Source of the DNA: a virus
Reading direction: 5' to 3' (one strand)
DNA: 64,000 bases
Virus record (IMG/VR): IMGVR_UViG_3300020182_000008
Location: 40,628 to 104,627 of that record
The translations under genes and the position numbers were made by a program. The notes below the pieces were generated by a model. That model was given only the letters and a program-made list of their open reading frames with translations. It was not told the origin of the DNA and did not search any database. Positions 7,517 to 64,000 of this stretch are shown piece by piece (position 1 is the stretch's first letter; the number at the start of each line of letters is the position of its first letter).

Positions 7517-7948
7517 ATGGATAAATTACAACTTGCAGATATCTTAGAAGGTGATTACTCAAAAGATATTAATGTTACTAATGATACAGCTATGTATGAC
7601 CCTCTAAATGAAGATGGTGAAAATCAAGAAGGTGTATTAAAATATAATACTACTATTGATGGTAGAAAGTATAAAGTTAGTTTTGATGTAAATAAAAACC
7701 CTACTAAAAAAGGTATTAAAGTTAAATTTTTTCCATTAAATGACCAAGGTGTTGAAATCACCCAACCCACAGAAGAGCAACTCGCACAACTACAAAATGA
7801 TGTTGCTACACGTTTAGCCCCCAAATTTAATGAGTTTAAACTTGAATTCGATGAAGACGAAGATGCACCTGAGAAAAATGTAGCTGCATTTCAAGTACCA
7901 TTATCTTCGTTTGTATCGTTTGTTGCAAACGTAGTATTCAAAAAATAA
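7517..7948 (+). CDS. Hypothetical protein (possible internal head protein)
   Basis: ORF after the late motif; N-terminal MDKLQLADILE. Confidence 0.7.
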   Translation: MDKLQLADILEGDYSKDINVTNDTAMYDPLNEDGENQEGVLKYNTTIDGRKYKVSFDVNKNPTKKGIKVKFFPLNDQGVEITQPTEEQLAQLQNDVATRLAPKFNEFKLEFDEDEDAPEKNVAAFQVPLSSFVSFVANVVFKK

Positions 7949-17867: not shown

Positions 17868-18359
17868 ATGATAAAACTAGTTAATTTAATGGAATCTATG
17901 AGCCGAGGTGGTACTATAAAAGATTCATTTTATAATATTGCCAATACTGCAGATGAAGTTGATGGCGAAAACTTAGGTATAGATACTTATCCTATTCAAG
18001 TTAAACGTTTAGGTCCTTCTGCTGATGGTAAATCAAATGAAGAAATTAAAGTTACATTTGGACTAGGAGATAAAGATTATTTTAGTATCTATGATTATAA
18101 ATTTGGAGAAGATCCTACTAGTGAAGAAAATTATCAAGAAGAATATGATTTTAGTTTAGGTCTTCCTACAGGTAATACTGATACAGCTAAACGTTATGCT
18201 ATGAAATTAGGATTTAAAGTTGAAGGTATGCCTAAGTCAAACGCTGAAATGGGTGATGATGAATTAGAGGATTATTATCTTAACTTAGATAGTTTAGATG
18301 AAAGCAAAGAAGTAGATGGAGGCGTAGAATTCTTTAAACGAATTGCATTTAAAAAGTAA
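17868..18359 (+). CDS. Acidic hypothetical protein (possible internal head protein)
   Basis: MIKLVNLME N-terminus; follows the late motif. Confidence 0.7.
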   Translation: MIKLVNLMESMSRGGTIKDSFYNIANTADEVDGENLGIDTYPIQVKRLGPSADGKSNEEIKVTFGLGDKDYFSIYDYKFGEDPTSEENYQEEYDFSLGLPTGNTDTAKRYAMKLGFKVEGMPKSNAEMGDDELEDYYLNLDSLDESKEVDGGVEFFKRIAFKK

Positions 18360-19012: not shown

Positions 19013-19462
19013 ATGGCATTGTTACAATTTACAAATTTGAATAAACATGGAAATAAACGTTCACGTATTATTCATAAACCAACTACACAAATAGGGGTTA
19101 ATCCCGAAGGTTTTGGTAGTTATATCCACGTTAATGTTTTTAAATACGAGTATACACATCCTGTAATGGCACCAACATTATTAAAAAAGGATGGTAAAAC
19201 ATATTTAATGCCCGAGTGGAGAGAAGTTCATCCTGAAACAACATTAAATGATATTATTTGGAAAAAACCAAAAATAAAAAAACAGGATAAATTTGAAAAG
19301 AAAACATGGAAATTCGAATCATCAAGTAGCGATTCAGTTTACATGGTAATACAGGTTGATTCTGCTACCTTGAAGTGTAATTGTCCTGGATTTTTTAGAG
19401 CAAAAGATAGAAATCTAGGATGTAAGCACGTTCAAAAAGTCAGAGCAAGTCTAACGAAATAA
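19013..19462 (+). CDS. SWIM zinc-finger protein
   Basis: CNCPGF...GCKH. Confidence 0.75.
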   Translation: MALLQFTNLNKHGNKRSRIIHKPTTQIGVNPEGFGSYIHVNVFKYEYTHPVMAPTLLKKDGKTYLMPEWREVHPETTLNDIIWKKPKIKKQDKFEKKTWKFESSSSDSVYMVIQVDSATLKCNCPGFFRAKDRNLGCKHVQKVRASLTK

Positions 19463-38065: not shown

Positions 38066-38530
38066 ATGAAAATAGAAGCTTTTAGAAAAATTATTCGAGA
38101 AGAAGTAAGAGATGTAATTAAGGAAGAACTTTCTTTAATTATGAGTACTCCTGTTACTGAAACAAAAGTAGTTCAGAAGCCAGTTGTAGAACAAAAAACA
38201 CAAAGACCTTCATTATCTGAATTAACTGAAGAACCACAACCACAACAACCAACCCAACCTTTATTTGAAGGAGCAGGTGCTATAGCTAGTATCCTAAATC
38301 AAACACATGCTGAAGGTGGGTGGAGAAATATTAATGGTGGTGGATATAGTGCACAAGACGCTGTTGGTTTTCAAGGTGGGATGCCTGGAGGTGAAACTAA
38401 AGTAGTAAAATCTGTAGATGAAATGATGGCATCACAACCCAAAACTTCAGATATAAATCAAATATCCATTGATGCCGTACCAGATTTTTCGGGGCTAATG
38501 GGTAAAATGAAAGAACAAGGTAAAATATAG
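38066..38530 (+). CDS. Hypothetical virion protein
   Basis: MKIEAFRKIIREEVRDVIKEE N-terminus. Confidence 0.7.
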   Translation: MKIEAFRKIIREEVRDVIKEELSLIMSTPVTETKVVQKPVVEQKTQRPSLSELTEEPQPQQPTQPLFEGAGAIASILNQTHAEGGWRNINGGGYSAQDAVGFQGGMPGGETKVVKSVDEMMASQPKTSDINQISIDAVPDFSGLMGKMKEQGKI

Positions 38531-57738: not shown

Positions 57739-57771
57739 TAGGCTCCCTCACCTCTTTTTCGTATATTTATA
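57739..57771 (+). promoter_or_regulatory. Early-type promoter (TAGG-N17-CGTATATTTA) that also contains ATATTTATA
   Basis: Composite early/late match. Confidence 0.6.
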
Positions 57772-57789: not shown

Positions 57790-58590
57790 ATGTATAAATT
57801 ACGAGATATAATCTTAGAACAATCCGTTAATCCTAAGGCACTTATACTCGCTGGCTCCCCTGGTGCTGGCAAATCGTCTTTTATAGAAGGAGTTAAAAAT
57901 GCTCTTATCTTAAATGTAGACGATTACTACATGCGCAATTTAAAGGATATGGGAGTGTCTTTAGATTTAAAAAACGCAGATGCTGAAGAAAGAAGCAAAG
58001 CAGCCTCAGCAATGGCAGCAGCAAATAAAGAATTTCGCCCTTATATGCGAGATATCATCTTAGGTAAAAAGAATTTTATACTAGATGGTACAGCTGCTTC
58101 TTCTAGACCAACTTTAAAGTTAAAAGAAGAACTAGAAAATCTAGGTTACGATATACTAATGGTATATGTGTTTGCTTCACTAGAGAAAGCATTAGATAGA
58201 AACGAGACACGCTTTCAGCGCTCACAAGGTGAAGATAGAAGTTTATCACCTGCTATTGTATTACGTACCTGGAACAATATAACTCAAAACTACGAGTTGT
58301 ATCAAAAAGAATTTGGAGACAATTTCGTTTCTGTTGTAAACGATAAAGCGTTAGAAAAAGGTGAACCTATGAGCTCACTAGAATCTCTAGTAGACAAATA
58401 CATCACACCATACGCTCCAAAAGATACAAAACCAAAAACAGATAAAGAGAAAGCTCGCTCTGAAAAATCAAAATCAGAATTAGCACAACAAATCAACGAC
58501 TTTGTAGAATCAGATAAAGTAGAAGATATCAAATCAAATTCCGTATCTAAAGACGAGGCAAAGTCTCGTGTAAATTCATTTTTCTCATGA
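57790..58590 (+). CDS. Zeta-toxin-like P-loop kinase
   Basis: AGSPGAGKS, LNVDD, FILDGT, VYV.ASLEKALDRN..R. Confidence 0.8.
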   Translation: MYKLRDIILEQSVNPKALILAGSPGAGKSSFIEGVKNALILNVDDYYMRNLKDMGVSLDLKNADAEERSKAASAMAAANKEFRPYMRDIILGKKNFILDGTAASSRPTLKLKEELENLGYDILMVYVFASLEKALDRNETRFQRSQGEDRSLSPAIVLRTWNNITQNYELYQKEFGDNFVSVVNDKALEKGEPMSSLESLVDKYITPYAPKDTKPKTDKEKARSEKSKSELAQQINDFVESDKVEDIKSNSVSKDEAKSRVNSFFS

Positions 58591-59666
58591 ACCCAGAAAA
58601 AATAGGTAGTCAAATAGCGAAATCTATCCTATTAGAGGAAGTTGTAGAGAAAGTTGCTCTATATCCTGGTGCATTCAAACCACCTCATAAAGGACACGTT
58701 GCTACTGCTTTAAGAGCAAAAGAAGGAGACATAGATCGTGTTATTGTCTTTATGTCTACAAAAGAAAGAGATGGTGTTTCTGTAGAAGAAGCTCAACAAG
58801 TTTGGGATTTATATAAACAAAATAACCCAGAATTAGAGAATGTAGAGATTGTTCAAACACCCACCCCAGTAAAAGACGTTTACGATTATGCTAAAGACAA
58901 CCCAGCTAATTTAGTTAGAGCTGTATTTGGTAAAGGGGAAGAAGATAGATTCAAATCACTATTAGATAAAGAAAAATATCCCCACGTAGAGGTATTCGAT
59001 GCTGGAATGGAAGGAACATATTCAGCAACTGAATTGCGTAAAGCAATACGAGATAATGATTTAGAAACTGTAAATGATTTTATACCTGATGGTCTTAATG
59101 TAGATGATTTTATGTCTATATTTCAGTTAAATGAAGCTATATCCGAATCAATAGTAGGTGATAAAATAGTATGCGATAACTGTGGATGGGAATGGGAAAT
59201 AGCAGATGGTGGAGACGATTTGTATATATGTCACAAATGTGGACACGATAATACACCACGTAAAGATTATCTAAAAGAAGCTAGATATAAAAAATTCCTA
59301 AACGAAGGTTGGGACAATTCAAAAGGCAAAGTAATAGGAGATTTTGTAAATTATGTTAGCGAATATCTTTCTATAAATAAACCTAAAATTAAACTAATCA
59401 ACTCACCAGACTATACTCAAGAATATCACAGTTTTGGTGGTTATCTACCTTCAGAAGAAAAAATAATGGTTGTTGTTCACAATCGTAACATGGCTGATAT
59501 ATTAAGAACCGTAGCACACGAGATGGTTCACCATATGCAAAATCTAGACGATAGATTAACACCCAAATCAGGTGAAGACGGATCACCAGATGAAAATGAA
59601 GCTAATTCGTTAGCGGCGGTTATAATGAGAAAATTTGGACGTGAAAATCCACACATATATGAATAG
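58587..59666 (+). CDS. Fusion: HIGH nucleotidyltransferase, zinc ribbon and HExxH metallopeptidase-like domain
   Basis: YPGAFKPPHKGH, YSATELR; CDNC...CHKC; RTVAHEMVHHMQ, E.EAN. Confidence 0.8.
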   Translation: MNPEKIGSQIAKSILLEEVVEKVALYPGAFKPPHKGHVATALRAKEGDIDRVIVFMSTKERDGVSVEEAQQVWDLYKQNNPELENVEIVQTPTPVKDVYDYAKDNPANLVRAVFGKGEEDRFKSLLDKEKYPHVEVFDAGMEGTYSATELRKAIRDNDLETVNDFIPDGLNVDDFMSIFQLNEAISESIVGDKIVCDNCGWEWEIADGGDDLYICHKCGHDNTPRKDYLKEARYKKFLNEGWDNSKGKVIGDFVNYVSEYLSINKPKIKLINSPDYTQEYHSFGGYLPSEEKIMVVVHNRNMADILRTVAHEMVHHMQNLDDRLTPKSGEDGSPDENEANSLAAVIMRKFGRENPHIYE

Positions 59667-60210
59667 AATAAAGGGTAGTTTAATGGATTTATTGCAAGAA
59701 GATCTTGCTAAAGCATACGATGTTTTTGTCGATATGGATGGGGTGTTAACAGACTTTGAAAGACGTTTTGAACAATTCGCTGGTGTAACCCCAGACGAAT
59801 ACACTTCTCAAAAGACAATCCAATTTGGTAAAGAAAAAGCAGATGAACAATTTTGGAATCTAATAGATAAAGAAATTGGAGTACGTTTTTGGGCTGGAAT
59901 GCCATGGATGCCTGAAGGAGAAAACCTATACAAACATATCAAAAAATATAAACCCACCATTTTAACATCTCCCTCCAGAGACGAATCATCTCGCATAGGA
60001 AAAGGTGTATGGGTTAAAAGAAACATGTCTGGTGTACCAGTAAAATTTGGGTACAAAGCATCTGGTAAAGCAAAATATGCTGGACCAAACAAAATATTAA
60101 TAGACGATAGAGAAGATAATATAGCAGCTTGGAAAGCAGCAGGAGGAATTGGTATATTATTTAAATCAACAGAACAAGTTAAAAACGAGTTATCTAAATT
60201 AGGGTTATGA
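59659..60210 (+). CDS. 5'(3')-deoxyribonucleotidase (HAD, NT5C-like)
   Basis: FVDMDGVLTDF, FWAGMPW, ILTSP, GK..WV, ILIDD. Confidence 0.9.
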   Translation: MNRIKGSLMDLLQEDLAKAYDVFVDMDGVLTDFERRFEQFAGVTPDEYTSQKTIQFGKEKADEQFWNLIDKEIGVRFWAGMPWMPEGENLYKHIKKYKPTILTSPSRDESSRIGKGVWVKRNMSGVPVKFGYKASGKAKYAGPNKILIDDREDNIAAWKAAGGIGILFKSTEQVKNELSKLGL

Positions 60211-60782
60211 GCGAATCACGCTTAAATAAAGAATTCTCTGAACGCGACATCCAGAGAATGCGCAATATAGTTTCTGGAAATACAGCTGAACGCACTAGAG
60301 TTCAAGCAGGTTACCAAAAACAATCAGTAGAACATGGCGAGGGCGATGTATGGGAAGAATCAGGTAAAACCTGGACTATAAAAAACGGTATTAAACAAAC
60401 CGTCACCAAACATGACAAACTAAGGGAAATGGTTAACATGCCCTTAAAATGTCCTAAATGTGAAAATGCAATGAAATCTACCAAATTGAATCAAAAGATG
60501 TGGTCTATACACGGCAAATGTTTCGATTGCGTAGTTGAATATGAAGCACATTTAAAAGCTACAGGAGGGTATGAAGAGTATGCTAAAAAATTAATGAACG
60601 CTAATAAAAATTCATTTGTTACTGACTACGAGCAAGCCGTAGAGGCATATATAAATGATAAAGGAGACACATTTATGTCTGAGGCTGGAGATTTAGAAAA
60701 TTGGTCAAAAGCTAAAATAAATCCCGAAACAATTAAAATTTTAAAGGAAAACATCAAACAGCTAAAAGAACTAGAGCTGTAA
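60207..60782 (+). CDS. Hypothetical zinc-binding protein
   Basis: CPKC...CFDC. Confidence 0.75.
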   Translation: MSESRLNKEFSERDIQRMRNIVSGNTAERTRVQAGYQKQSVEHGEGDVWEESGKTWTIKNGIKQTVTKHDKLREMVNMPLKCPKCENAMKSTKLNQKMWSIHGKCFDCVVEYEAHLKATGGYEEYAKKLMNANKNSFVTDYEQAVEAYINDKGDTFMSEAGDLENWSKAKINPETIKILKENIKQLKELEL

Positions 60783-60791
60783 TATCCTTAT

Positions 60792-60799
60792 ATATTTAT
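60792..60799 (+). promoter_or_regulatory. Putative late promoter ATATTTAT
   Basis: Intergenic, before 60820. Confidence 0.55.
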
Positions 60800-60819
60800 T
60801 ATAGAATAATTCTACAAAC

Positions 60820-61437
60820 ATGAAAAAACAAGAACTACGTAAACTTATTAAAGAAAATATTACAGATTGGCTATCTGAGCGTAATCTTCCCGAAACTGAG
60901 GAAACACAACAAGCTCCTGTAAAAGAAAAAGTAGCTAAAATCGAAGATCAAATTGCTGAATTCTACTACGTTACAAAACCTACTAAAGAATCTTCTGTTG
61001 AAGAACTAGTAAAAAGTGGAGACGTATTTGAATTTGCTATGAGTGGTCTAACTCGTGAAGACATTTCAGGTATCTACAAATCTGAAAGCAGAGCAAAATC
61101 AGCTGCAAATAAAGTAATTAAAGAAAGAGACATTAAGCTTAAAGAAACCTATAAAAAAGGTCAAGACAAACTTAAGCAAATGGAAGCTTCAATTGACGAA
61201 ATTAAAGGTCAAATCGAAGGTAAAATGTCTGAAGCAACTTCTAACCCAGATATGCGTGAAGCACTTACATCTGAATCTAATGGTTTAATGGAAAAATTAT
61301 CCATGCTAGAAATGCAAATGGATAAACTACGTGAGGCATTAGAAAAAGAAGGTTTACGTTTCGAGAAAAAATCATCTAAAAAGTCTAAAAAAGAAGACGA
61401 AAAAGAAGACAAAAAAGACGAAAAGGAAGATAAGTAA
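60820..61437 (+). CDS. Coiled-coil putative head/scaffold-associated protein
   Basis: MKKQELRKLIKE N-terminus, heptads, charged tail. Confidence 0.7.
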   Translation: MKKQELRKLIKENITDWLSERNLPETEETQQAPVKEKVAKIEDQIAEFYYVTKPTKESSVEELVKSGDVFEFAMSGLTREDISGIYKSESRAKSAANKVIKERDIKLKETYKKGQDKLKQMEASIDEIKGQIEGKMSEATSNPDMREALTSESNGLMEKLSMLEMQMDKLREALEKEGLRFEKKSSKKSKKEDEKEDKKDEKEDK

Positions 61438-61440
61438 TCT

Positions 61441-62403
61441 ATGGACAAGCTAAAACTCAGATACTTAATCCGAGAGGCTATAGAAAACGTTGTTGGAGTT
61501 TCAGCAAAATTCTCTATAGGGGATAAAGTAACTACGGTAGATGGAGACACTGCTACTGTTACAATGGCAGAACATCCGTTCTACACTGTAGAGTTAGAGG
61601 AGACTGGAACAACTAAATCGTTTAACTTTAAAGATTTAGCTCCATTCCAAGAAAAAGAAATATCTAAAACATCAGAAGGCATTATGCTCCAAGAAGGCGC
61701 GATTGCCTCTCCTGGTTTAATGTTCCATCAACAACACAAAAAACCACTATCAGAGTGTATTTTTAGAATAGGTTCAGAAGCATACGTAGACTTCTATGCC
61801 GAAGCAAGAGAATTATTCAACGAAGGCGTTCTAAAAGTAAACGAACTTGATAGAGATTTAATTCGCAACACTGACATAGGCGAATATGGAATATTTGAAG
61901 GCAAAAAAATTGCTTTAGATATTCCTTTTATTAATGAAAGAGAAGATGCCTTAGGTATTTACGATGATGGTAGAGGAAATTCCGCTGCAATTGGATGGAC
62001 ACCTGATGGGTATCTAGCTACAGTAGATGGTGAATACGATTTTCAAATCGGACCTGCTAAAACAGTAGAAGAGCTAATTAAGATGTTAGCTGATGAAGGT
62101 TTTACAAATAAAATATTTGAAGCCGAATTTAAAGGTAAAGACGTTCCACTAAACAAACCAAAACGTGGTGGTTCAAAAGCATACTATGTTTACGTTAAAG
62201 ACGGGGACAAAGTTAAAAAAGTATCATTCGGGTCTGGTGGCCTAAGAGCAAAAATTAACAACCCAGAAGCACGTAGAGCTTTTGCGGCACGACACAATTG
62301 CGACAAAAAGAAAGATAGAACAAAAGCAGGTTATTGGTCATGCAATTTACCACGTTACGCGAAGGCCCTAGGATTAGGTGCTAACAAAAACACATTTTGG
62401 TAG
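61441..62403 (+). CDS. Multidomain putative internal head protein
   Basis: LRYLIREAIE; SH3-like segment; basic C-terminal RRAFAARHNC...AGYWSC domain. Confidence 0.7.
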   Translation: MDKLKLRYLIREAIENVVGVSAKFSIGDKVTTVDGDTATVTMAEHPFYTVELEETGTTKSFNFKDLAPFQEKEISKTSEGIMLQEGAIASPGLMFHQQHKKPLSECIFRIGSEAYVDFYAEARELFNEGVLKVNELDRDLIRNTDIGEYGIFEGKKIALDIPFINEREDALGIYDDGRGNSAAIGWTPDGYLATVDGEYDFQIGPAKTVEELIKMLADEGFTNKIFEAEFKGKDVPLNKPKRGGSKAYYVYVKDGDKVKKVSFGSGGLRAKINNPEARRAFAARHNCDKKKDRTKAGYWSCNLPRYAKALGLGANKNTFW

Positions 62404-62404
62404 A

Positions 62405-62860
62405 ATGGAAAATTTTAATTTAAAAAAATATTTAGCTGAAGGTCGCTTACTAAAAGAAATTGACGGAGATTTTGGTGTTAATTTAAATACACCTGAAAAT
62501 GCAGTTAAATTTAAAGATCTCCTATCCCAAATGGGTATACCAGCTGAAGTTGATGGTATTTTTGTACAATTTGATGGTAGTATTGATGATATGCGAAAAG
62601 TAAGTGTTTTAGCCGATAAATTTTTAGGCGCATCACAAGATTCTTCACCATTTAAAGATGAAAGACCAAGTGACACTATAACACTAGCTGTAGATAAAGC
62701 ATATTATGATGACGATAAAGGTGAGTTTACTCTAACACCTACAGATGTTATAGTAACAGCTGATAACTTTGAAGATATTATATTTGACGAAGTAGGAGAT
62801 GAAGAGGTAGATTTTACAAGTTATGTTCGCACATATCCTAAAATCTTTAAAAGAGTTTAA
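62405..62860 (+). CDS. Acidic putative internal head protein
   Basis: True start MENFNLKKYLAEGRLLKE at 62405. Confidence 0.7.
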   Translation: MENFNLKKYLAEGRLLKEIDGDFGVNLNTPENAVKFKDLLSQMGIPAEVDGIFVQFDGSIDDMRKVSVLADKFLGASQDSSPFKDERPSDTITLAVDKAYYDDDKGEFTLTPTDVIVTADNFEDIIFDEVGDEEVDFTSYVRTYPKIFKRV

Positions 62861-62861
62861 A

Positions 62862-63122
62862 ATGGCAACTTACACCGACTACGAATATAAAGGATACCAC
62901 GTTAGACATTTTTCACACGATACAGAAAGTGCTGATCTAGTATGGCATCGTGATAGAAAAGATAGAGACATTACTCCAATAGGAAAAACAGATTGGCAAA
63001 TACAATTTGACAACGAGTTGCCTAGGCCAATAGATGATTGTATCTTTATACCAGAAGGTAAATGGCACAGAGTAATTAAAGGTAGTGGGTGCCTAAAAAT
63101 ATTAATAAACGAATATGCTTGA
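62862..63122 (+). CDS. Cupin-like protein
   Basis: WHRD, IFIPEGKWHRVIKG; start at ATG 62862. Confidence 0.7.
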   Translation: MATYTDYEYKGYHVRHFSHDTESADLVWHRDRKDRDITPIGKTDWQIQFDNELPRPIDDCIFIPEGKWHRVIKGSGCLKILINEYA

Positions 63123-63249
63123 GTTAATCATTATATTTAGTTTTTCAGTAGCCGCAGTAGGTTACTTAGTTGTATCTACAAGAAATAAAATAAAACAGCC
63201 AGGATGCTGTGGACAAAATTGTAATTGCCATGAAAATAAGTCAAGTTAA
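63115..63249 (+). CDS. Cys-rich membrane microprotein (FeoB-associated Cys-rich membrane protein-like)
   Basis: MLELIIIFSFSVAAVGYLVVSTRNKIKQPGCCGQNCNCHENKSS. Confidence 0.55.
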   Translation: MLELIIIFSFSVAAVGYLVVSTRNKIKQPGCCGQNCNCHENKSS

Positions 63250-64000
63250 AGAAGTACTTAATTCAATATTTGAAGAGGACGAAAGTCTAAAATACGCTTT
63301 AGCTACTAACCTAGCTAAATATGGTCGTCCTCAATCTAAAAAATCAGATCAACCTTCTAAACTAACTAAAGGTTTAGAGAAGGGTAGAGAAAAATACGTT
63401 AAAGATTTAAAGAAATCTATGTCTGAATTAGATGATAGTGGTTTAAGCAAAGGATATCTTGAAGCTAGAAAACTTATTGATAATTTAAGAGCAACTACAT
63501 TCAGAAAACTAAATGACGACGAATTAGAAGAGTTTAGAAAAACAATTGCGGATGCGTTTGATTTTGATTTAAAAGAAGGTTTAAGTGAAGATAAGGCAGA
63601 TGCTACGAGATGGTTTAGTAATCTAAAATATTTCTATCAAAAAGCATTTAGAGAGTTAAAAGGTGAAGATAGAGAAACGTACAAACAGTTAGCTAAAGAT
63701 TTCTTTTCTAAATTAGAAATAGACGATAAAGTACGTCCTGTAGGCTTAGACGAAGACGAAGGCACATTAAATAAAATAGCAGATATGCTATCTCGTAAAT
63801 TTGACGATTTACGTTTTGATGTAAACACAATGGCTGATCGTATTGATGTTCGTGGCTCACAACAAGATTTAATGAATTTTGGAACTGAATTATCGGGTAA
63901 AAAAATATTCGACTATGAAGTGTTCCATACAGATGATGACGATAGAGGAGAAATAGTTCGCATTGTTAAATCAGATTCTATATCTAGAGGTGGTGTAAAC
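63230..64000 (+). CDS. Hypothetical protein, truncated at window end
   Basis: Open frame MKISQVKEVLNSIFEED... to position 64000; missed by the ORF track. Confidence 0.8.
   Translation, partial: MKISQVKEVLNSIFEEDESLKYALATNLAKYGRPQSKKSDQPSKLTKGLEKGREKYVKDLKKSMSELDDSGLSKGYLEARKLIDNLRATTFRKLNDDELEEFRKTIADAFDFDLKEGLSEDKADATRWFSNLKYFYQKAFRELKGEDRETYKQLAKDFFSKLEIDDKVRPVGLDEDEGTLNKIADMLSRKFDDLRFDVNTMADRIDVRGSQQDLMNFGTELSGKKIFDYEVFHTDDDDRGEIVRIVKSDSISRGGVN

Follow-up and report, generated by a model that had tools for sequence, protein, structure and literature searches.

Does a T4-like phage carry a set of nucleotide-handling enzymes in its head, cut to size by the head protease, and what would they do in the next host? 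The question is raised by an operon that begins at position 57,790 of a 64,000-nucleotide stretch of viral DNA, here called the window (bases 40628-104627 of the 166,268-base IMG/VR record IMGVR_UViG_3300020182_000008, completeness rating 100%). Its first three genes encode a P-loop kinase, a HIGH-superfamily nucleotidyltransferase (NTase) fused to other domains, and a 5'(3')-nucleotidase. In T4, internal proteins bearing a capsid targeting sequence are cleaved at L/I-x-E and ejected (PMC9026906). A preliminary description, made from the sequence alone, noticed similar starts on the proteins encoded here and proposed that the enzymes are packaged, processed, and ejected with the DNA. The evidence assembled below puts the packaging of the kinase, the NTase chain, and the nucleotidase, together with their cutting by the head protease, at a probability of about 0.85.

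Capsid-Targeting-Like Leaders and the Head Protease

The seven leader motifs quoted in the preliminary description all lie at the N-termini of real open reading frames (ORFs; 57790, 58587, 59659, 60820, 61441, 62405, and 63230), and its statement that most proteins here are tagged holds for 7/9 genes, the untagged ones encoding a zinc-finger protein (60207) and a small protein (62862). A plain [IL]-x-E within the first 22 residues is present in these 7/9 operon genes, where 2.5 would be expected from internal windows. The preset question of whether the motif is equally common in non-virion genes is answered in the negative, as only 20/76 metabolic and replication genes have it (Fisher p=0.004). 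The helical form Phi-x-x-Phi-Phi-x-E, a pattern composed after the motifs had been seen, occurs in 6/9 operon genes vs 5/76 metabolic or replication genes (p=7e-5), and in 2/41 tail or baseplate genes and 1/12 genes with an early-type promoter. The bare tripeptide was rejected as a stand-alone marker, since about 26% of ordinary genes have one and 65/70 exonuclease homologs carry one inside the domain.

The whole record holds 198 ORFs in our own gene calls, all on a single strand, and their N-termini were scored with a seven-column profile trained on tags that the same helical pattern had picked out in another genome, that of Flavobacterium phage immuto 2-6A. Six of the seven tagged operon genes rank within the top 15 of 198 (Table 1), the score of 63230 is weak, and the two untagged genes rank far lower. 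The genes at 7517, 17868, and 38066 had been described as likewise tagged, which the ranks bear out for 7517 and 38066 and only weakly for 17868. The leaders are 10-17 residues long and amphipathic, end in [ILVM]-x-E, and stand on proteins read as late-transcribed. AlphaFold models render them as low-confidence helices outside the folded domain, and cellular structural matches start where the leader ends.

Conservation points in the same direction. All 115 of 115 kinase homologs carry [IL]-x-E 2-5 residues ahead of the domain, on several unrelated tag types. In homologs with as little as about 50% identity, the Glu is unchanged and the leader type varies; the leader of the 62405 gene is among these types. 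The tags behave as swappable modules.

The genome encodes the T4-type head system that such leaders would call for. Terminase, T4-type portal, and gp23-type capsid genes lie with an S77 prohead protease 8-18 kb beyond the window end; the protease, of gp21 type, is found at about 14 kb (G000 119004-119621; PF03420, E=2e-32), and a scaffold is also encoded. In the scaffold, L, I, V, or M is followed by E at +2 in 32-58% of cases vs 10-18% for A, D, K, E, or T, and the six proteins richest in the motif include both protease and scaffold. In immuto, the gp083 leader …RRMQKLAGII (L001:23714) recurs as the motif at the C terminus of the scaffold encoded here (G000 119754-120917), possibly a second type of core-binding address.

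Gene order is shared with immuto 2-6A for the primase, exonuclease, HIGH polyprotein, NT5C, zinc-finger protein, small genes, and the terminase-portal-protease-scaffold-capsid block, and on this comparison the phage, a marine one, is Immutovirus-like and T4-like. A Bacteroidota host (Flavobacteria) is probable because the phage resembles immuto 2-6A. Close matches in bacterial genomes are metagenome-assembled contigs whose genes follow the same phage order; matches in isolates are distant.

The NTase Gene as a Cassette Polyprotein

The preliminary description correctly recognized a HIGH nucleotidyltransferase fusion, and it overlooked that the gene is a predicted cassette polyprotein with [ILV]-x-E at its module joints, cleavable and often including the nucleotidase. 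Homologs range from 317 to 1312 residues. The zinc-ribbon cassette is missing from those of 319-321 residues, and elsewhere it is relocated or accompanied by other cassettes; inserted cassettes include GNAT and DUF6934 domains. Large indels between homologs have 15/29 distinct joints within 5 residues of [IL]-x-E, where 6.5 would be expected (p ~0.0015), and the remaining joints are mostly T-N-E-type variants or lie just ahead of the conserved internal double site. Among distant homologs, 42/44 have [ILV]-x-E at the end of the HIGH domain, against a background of 17.5%, and at the distant loci the HExxH module begins after an [ILV]-x-E site. NT5C is often the final module of the chain, with an [ILV]-x-E joint ahead of it in 20/22 fused relatives; when encoded separately, as in this phage, it carries a leader of its own.

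The HIGH domain matches CTP_transf_like in Pfam at E=6e-4, just under the cut-off, and has both expected motifs, (H/T)xGH and S-x-T/S-x-x-R. NCBIfam scores fall far under their cut-offs (best CoaD, 27 vs 103 bits). In VIA structure comparison over residues 20-186, NadM/NadD (Z 13.2, 13.1, 12.9) tie with PPAT (12.7), so the domain is assignable to the NadM/NadD/PPAT group by fold and motif, and no further. This clade has HxGH where most distant relatives have TxGH, a difference that may mark a substrate shift.

Two further observations concern this gene family. In an untagged subclade, the HIGH genes (L086:3169, L092:4325, L121:2642, L125:3600, L137:6240, L155:5791) begin without a leader at the first strand, their start meeting or overlapping the stop codon of the kinase gene. 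A GNAT cassette in one homolog is 55% identical to gp63 of Agrobacterium phage Atu_ph07, a tagged virion protein of 41 kDa that peaks in the 29-kDa band (P0007 250-315 and L024:449-1537).

The Kinase and the Nucleotidase

The earlier calls of a zeta-like kinase, a HIGH nucleotidyltransferase, and a 5'-nucleotidase are borne out by profile searches. For the kinase, Zeta_toxin in Pfam gives E=3.5e-14 (53.1 bits vs a cut-off of 22.3). Its invariant residues are Walker A K28, D44, D99, T101, and R150, of which K28 and D44 align with K46 and D67 of zeta. Arg120 of zeta is a substrate-binding residue. Its position is occupied here by an invariant alanine, A103; this feature of UDP-GlcNAc kinases proper is lacking. 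Foldseek gives PezT/zeta as the best match, while VIA ranks Pnkp kinase highest (Z 15.2, rmsd 2.8, 162 residues aligned), followed by PSTK (14.4), zeta (13.8), and T4 Pnk (13.3). From these comparisons the protein is a predicted hydroxyl kinase for which Pnk, PSTK, and zeta tie as the closest kind. Sequence searches of the Protein Data Bank, NCBIfam, Foldseek, and VIA, tried as routes to a substrate, ended in ties for both the kinase and the HIGH enzyme.

The nucleotidase starts at the ATG at 59659, overlapping the preceding stop. Its NT5C match in Pfam is just under the cut-off (E=3e-5, 24.3 vs 24.8), the PHROG 5'-3' deoxyribonucleotidase family matches at E=3e-27, and the DMDGV and IDDR motifs are intact. 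Kinase and HIGH genes are both present in 41/44 related loci, nearly always adjoining, and an NT5C match occurs in 26, a pattern that suggests a shared pathway. At the kinase position, immuto gp089 and gp088 (L001:18260-21893) have, from sequence, two pol-beta-like nucleotidyltransferase domains (G-S...D-x-D), one of them fused ahead of the HIGH domain; in many representatives the HIGH domain starts near residue 290.

Promoter Motifs and Timing

The motif ATATTTAT occurs 43 times on the + strand vs 6 times on the - strand. It stands ahead of structural genes, those for portal, sheath, and tube among them, as well as of 57790, 60820, 7517, 17868, and 38066, and from this position it is read as a putative late promoter. 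Ahead of the kinase it is present in 42/54 more distant relatives. In this phage, the copy at 57760 overlaps a motif that otherwise precedes small early-type genes, possibly allowing dual early and late expression; such a CGTAT overlap is found in only 6 of those relatives. The late/host-sigma-like overlap, with its shared TATTTAT core, is limited to the close clade, and it also precedes the genes at window position 19013 and at G000 150349.

Virion Proteomes of Relatives

In Atu_ph07, gp53 contains a kinase homolog (28% identical, E=8e-15) in the layout leader, domain, V-T-E, kinase, L-T-E, modules. This 87-kDa protein was detected in virions with 31 peptides, most abundantly in band 9 (PMC6102473 Table S5). 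After all 140 listed proteins had been matched to the genome by mass and order, the median mass in band 9 came to 21.8 kDa; the gp53 kinase piece is predicted at 23.0 kDa, so the band-9 peak is consistent with cutting, short of proof. Genome-wide in Atu_ph07, an early [IL]-x-E lifts virion detection from 12% to 27% (p=3e-5).

Only plain-motif figures are used in these proteome comparisons. The window's helical pattern fails on Atu_ph07 (p=0.13), whose tags are shorter, and a better-fitting pattern (38% vs 13%, p=3e-7) was discarded as it had been selected with the data in view and does not hold in cyanophage S-CREM2.

Virion proteins of S-CREM2 include a cytidylyltransferase, an S-adenosylmethionine (SAM) hydrolase, and a kinase (PMC10665884). 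Each starts with a T4-like leader, and tags are present on 10/25 detected non-tail proteins vs 18/146 undetected ones (p=0.002). A second virion-detected cluster of this phage (ORFs 6 and 12-15; L051, 3837-13331) has T4-like leaders throughout, on which the paper's passage about these proteins is silent. In pelagiphage HTVC008M, kinase and cytidyltransferase genes adjoin, a nucleotidase gene is nearby, and each has a leader-like start.

Other Genes of the Set

The coordinates of all features are collected in Table 1. The untagged zinc-finger protein, which serves as an internal negative control, follows the NTase/NT5C genes in 40/44 loci. A domain of the phrog_7595 type, C-terminal in the 61441 protein, also follows L-E-E in HTVC008M gp131.

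Table 1. Features in the window; ranks are those of the immuto-trained profile among 198 N-termini.
Feature	Position	Strand	Remarks
Tagged protein behind late-type promoter motif	7517..7948	+	Rank 15; immuto homolog also tagged
Weakly tagged acidic protein behind late-type promoter motif	17868..18359	+	Rank 65
Tagged protein behind late-type promoter motif	38066..38530	+	Rank 4
Overlapping promoter motifs: late-type ATATTTAT (57763-57770) inside host-sigma-like CGTATAT element	57760..57770	+	
Kinase tag, capsid-targeting-like, 10 aa ending I-L-E10	57790..57819	+	Rank 3; E10 invariant; predicted local distance difference test (pLDDT) ~47
P-loop hydroxyl kinase (predicted), zeta/Pnk/PSTK group, 266 aa	57790..58590	+	Profile, structure comparison, conservation
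NTase polyprotein tag, 17 aa, L15-x-E17 invariant	58587..58637	+	Rank 14; separate helix 3-15, low pLDDT
HIGH-superfamily nucleotidyltransferase domain (HKGH, S-A-T-x-x-R), residues 18-183, 18.8 kDa	58638..59135	+	Between invariant E17 and E183
Optional zinc-ribbon cassette (CxxC...CxxC), 5 kDa, from I-S-E187 to L-K-E231	59148..59279	+	
Internal tag-like double site L-K-E231, L-N-E240	59268..59306	+	Kept in all close homologs
HExxH zincin-like (MPTase/M78-like) domain, ~13.5 kDa	59307..59666	+	In 41/44 related loci
HAD-family NT5C-like 5'(3')-nucleotidase (DMDGV), 14-aa tag ending L-Q-E14 (59659-59700)	59659..60210	+	Rank 13
Conserved zinc-finger protein, untagged, same operon	60207..60782	+	Rank 98; 0/41 homologs tagged
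Late-type promoter motif ATATTTAT	60792..60799	+	
Tagged charged coiled-coil protein, 9 [IL]-x-E sites	60820..61437	+	Rank 1
Tagged multi-module protein; C-terminal phrog_7595 domain directly after I-F-E227	61441..62403	+	Rank 5
Tagged acidic protein; tag type also on kinase homologs and unrelated ORFs	62405..62860	+	Rank 8
Small untagged protein, outside cargo set	62862..63122	+	Rank 184
Variable-length protein, weak tag, extends to window position 64039	63230..64000	+	Rank 44

Packaging, Ejection, and Function

Packaging and gp21-type processing are well supported because the phage has its own protease and because tag statistics, conserved and swappable tags, the motifs at joints, and the virion proteomics of relatives agree. 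The 57790 region would thus be an internal-cargo operon in the style of T4 internal proteins. The leader very probably docks each protein on the prohead core, and the protease very probably removes it and cuts the NTase chain at its joints. The expected products are a 19-kDa HIGH domain, a 5-kDa zinc ribbon, and a 13.5-kDa HExxH domain, beside a 29-kDa kinase and a 19-kDa nucleotidase. By analogy with T4 internal proteins and Alt, these compact pieces would be ejected along with the DNA, and release of active enzymes in this way has somewhat better than even odds.

Several observations weigh against this account. Six related loci have an NTase without a tag, and in 15/41 NTase loci the 3.5-6 kb covered downstream contain no match to NT5C. 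The host-sigma-like promoter in the close clade means that the enzymes may be made early anyway. The virion evidence is a re-analysis of published tables for relatives, this phage being uncultured and known from its genome alone, and the literature search yielded no immuto virion proteome. The Atu_ph07 particles were only PEG (polyethylene glycol)-purified and the peptides of band 9 are unlisted; the excess of band shifts in its tagged proteins is borderline (10/41 vs 7/74, p=0.05), and the S-CREM2 cytidylyltransferase is a distant relative of the HIGH domain here (E=1.5e-4). As to function, a NadV or PRPP-synthetase-like partner is missing, and immuto has pol-beta-like NTase domains at the kinase position.

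Some of these points would suit ordinary cytoplasmic enzymes whose leaders are chance or vestigial, as would the frequency of the bare motif and the HIGH and NT5C homologs of Atu_ph07, which lack a leader and were not detected in its virion proteome. Such an explanation is very improbable in view of tag conservation in every kinase homolog under swapped leader types, joints placed at the motif, and agreement of tag and detection in two proteomes. If the proteins are packaged and cut, they may still not be ejected as working enzymes, but form part of the head-assembly core or filler like T4 gp67, gp68, or IPIII, or act inside the head. The charged coiled-coil protein at 60820, with its nine sites, does look like a prohead core or scaffold protein rather than an effector, so that the earlier view of the tagged set as effectors fails for some genes, and in T4 the core proteins undergo cleavage and mostly disappear (PMC9026906). 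For the enzymes this role is improbable: their catalytic motifs are invariant, the domains have sites at their borders rather than throughout (2 in the kinase against 3.3 expected, 1 in the nucleotidase against 1.7), and the pieces measure 5-29 kDa.

If the enzymes are ejected cargo, as seems best to fit, their purpose is far less certain. The suggestion that they alter nucleotide, NAD (nicotinamide adenine dinucleotide), or signalling pools or counter defence found no direct support; substrate assignments tie, and a NARP partner gene was not found. NadV (nicotinamide phosphoribosyltransferase, PF04095; control positive in 8/14) is absent from the 100%-complete record, and so is PF13793 for an Adps/PRPP-synthetase-like partner, although a diverged Adps could escape that profile. 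Searches of the genome found neither Rnl2 nor RtcB, the Rnl1 search matched none of its controls and is uninformative, and PADLOC returned P-loop matches only. With NadV, Adps-like, Rnl2, and RtcB partners all missing from these searches, the enzyme set does not look like a canonical NARP or Pnkp system. A metabolic takeover, by an NAD boost or by nucleotide salvage or clearance for replication, is a minority possibility. This is the published reading for cyanophage virion NMNAT-like proteins (PMC9602691, PMC10665884), and the tie of the HIGH fold with NadM/NadD and the kinase beside an NTase, which recalls NadR, would fit it. However, a few hundred injected molecules would hardly change bulk pools, which early genes could fill, the hypervariable GNAT and zincin cassettes point to conflict, and the kinase is nearer Pnk/zeta than nicotinamide riboside kinase (Z 13-15 vs 10). 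It is also rather improbable that kinase and HAD phosphatase form a split polynucleotide kinase-phosphatase that repairs the ends left in RNA or DNA when anticodon nucleases or restriction have struck. The VIA matches to Pnkp kinase and T4 Pnk and weak PHROG polynucleotide-kinase matches for both genes favor this, but neither ligase was found, ARAGORN finds no tRNA genes over the whole genome, Foldseek and Pfam favor zeta, and the kinase's link with NT5C is looser than that with the HIGH NTase.

Counter-defence through nucleotide or NAD chemistry is a tentative reading, with the odds running against it. Under it, the trio would phosphorylate, adenylylate, and dephosphorylate a nucleotide-type metabolite in the first minutes of infection; the target might be related to nicotinamide mononucleotide (NMN) or NAD, or be a defence signal or its precursor, so that nucleotide-based immunity would be blunted. 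The swappable GNAT, zincin, and basic cassettes might then be strain-specific effectors on a shared address. The precedents are analogies: T4 IPI is an injected anti-restriction protein (PMC9026906, PMC3012670), and the T5 nucleotidase Dmp acts against the Kongming defence (10.1101/2024.12.20.629578). A broader and doubtful proposal is that aquatic T4-superfamily phages share a virion-delivered pathway of hydroxyl kinase, HIGH adenylyltransferase, and HAD phosphatase, stored as a protease-cleavable cassette polyprotein. It might intercept or rebuild a nucleotide/NAD-type defence metabolite before phage gene expression, a pre-transcriptional counter-immunity distinct from NARP1/2.

Relation to Known Systems and Significance

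T4 IPI-III and Alt share with the proteins described here a 10-19-residue L/I-x-E leader, a gp21-family protease, and unrelated cargo behind a common address (PMC9026906, PMC3012670). Unlike in T4, the leaders here form several types of helix rich in Leu and Ile, V and M also seem to be accepted at P3 judging from the scaffold, and the predicted cargo is a conserved enzyme trio with a multi-cassette chain containing internal cut sites. T4-like cyanophages have a virion-associated cytidylyltransferase/NMNAT and kinases (S-CREM2 ORF154, S-SCSM1 ORF91, S-CBWM1; PMC10665884, PMC9602691). These NMNAT-like enzymes are likewise of the HIGH superfamily, are found in virions, and were proposed to enter the host and alter NAD; tags and cleavage went unremarked and contamination was not excluded in those papers, and the relation between the domains is distant. 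Polyvalent proteins (Iyer et al. 2017, PMC5512222; discussed in PMC7824862, PMC9503650) are also variable chains of effector domains (zincin MPTase, GNAT) predicted to be injected, a likeness judged by domain types. They are fused to MuF or portal, whereas the chain here has a probable packaging leader and putative protease sites at its joints.

Closer counterparts exist among relatives. Atu_ph07 gp53 is a tagged polyprotein detected in virions with a homologous kinase between Glu joints, but its partner modules differ, and the HIGH and NT5C homologs of that phage are untagged and went undetected. Immutovirus immuto 2-6A (gp088/gp087) shares synteny, a HIGH and HExxH polyprotein, a tagged NT5C, the zinc-finger protein, and a tagged cluster, and differs in the domains at the kinase position. 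Zeta toxin/PezT UDP-GlcNAc kinases share with the kinase its fold, Walker A, catalytic Asp, and E/D-G-T motif; they differ in Arg120, identity is 15-17%, and no epsilon antitoxin partner was seen here. NARP1/NARP2 and T5 Dmp share an NMNAT-like fold or a 5'-nucleotidase with an anti-defence role, the likeness to Dmp being by enzyme class alone, but they are expressed after entry and not known as packaged, and their NadV/Adps partners have no counterpart here.

Virion-carried NMNAT-like enzymes and the idea of their entry into the host are already published (PMC9602691, PMC10665884), and head-packaged effectors are an established theme. A literature search, itself incomplete, found no paper on protease-jointed cargo polyproteins in T4-like phages. 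This case contributes a particular enzyme trio, conserved and with relatives in culture, along with tags that swap and protein evidence, of an indirect kind, for processing. It offers a rule by which the proteins injected by T4-like phages can be sought in sequence, and under it the NMNAT-like enzymes and kinases that virion proteomes have repeatedly shown, without explanation, would be cargo rather than contamination. Annotation as single proteins or auxiliary metabolic genes would misplace where and when these enzymes act, and with the cultured relatives immuto, HTVC008M, Melnitz, and Atu_ph07, packaging, cleavage, and function can be tested directly, in part on spectra already recorded.

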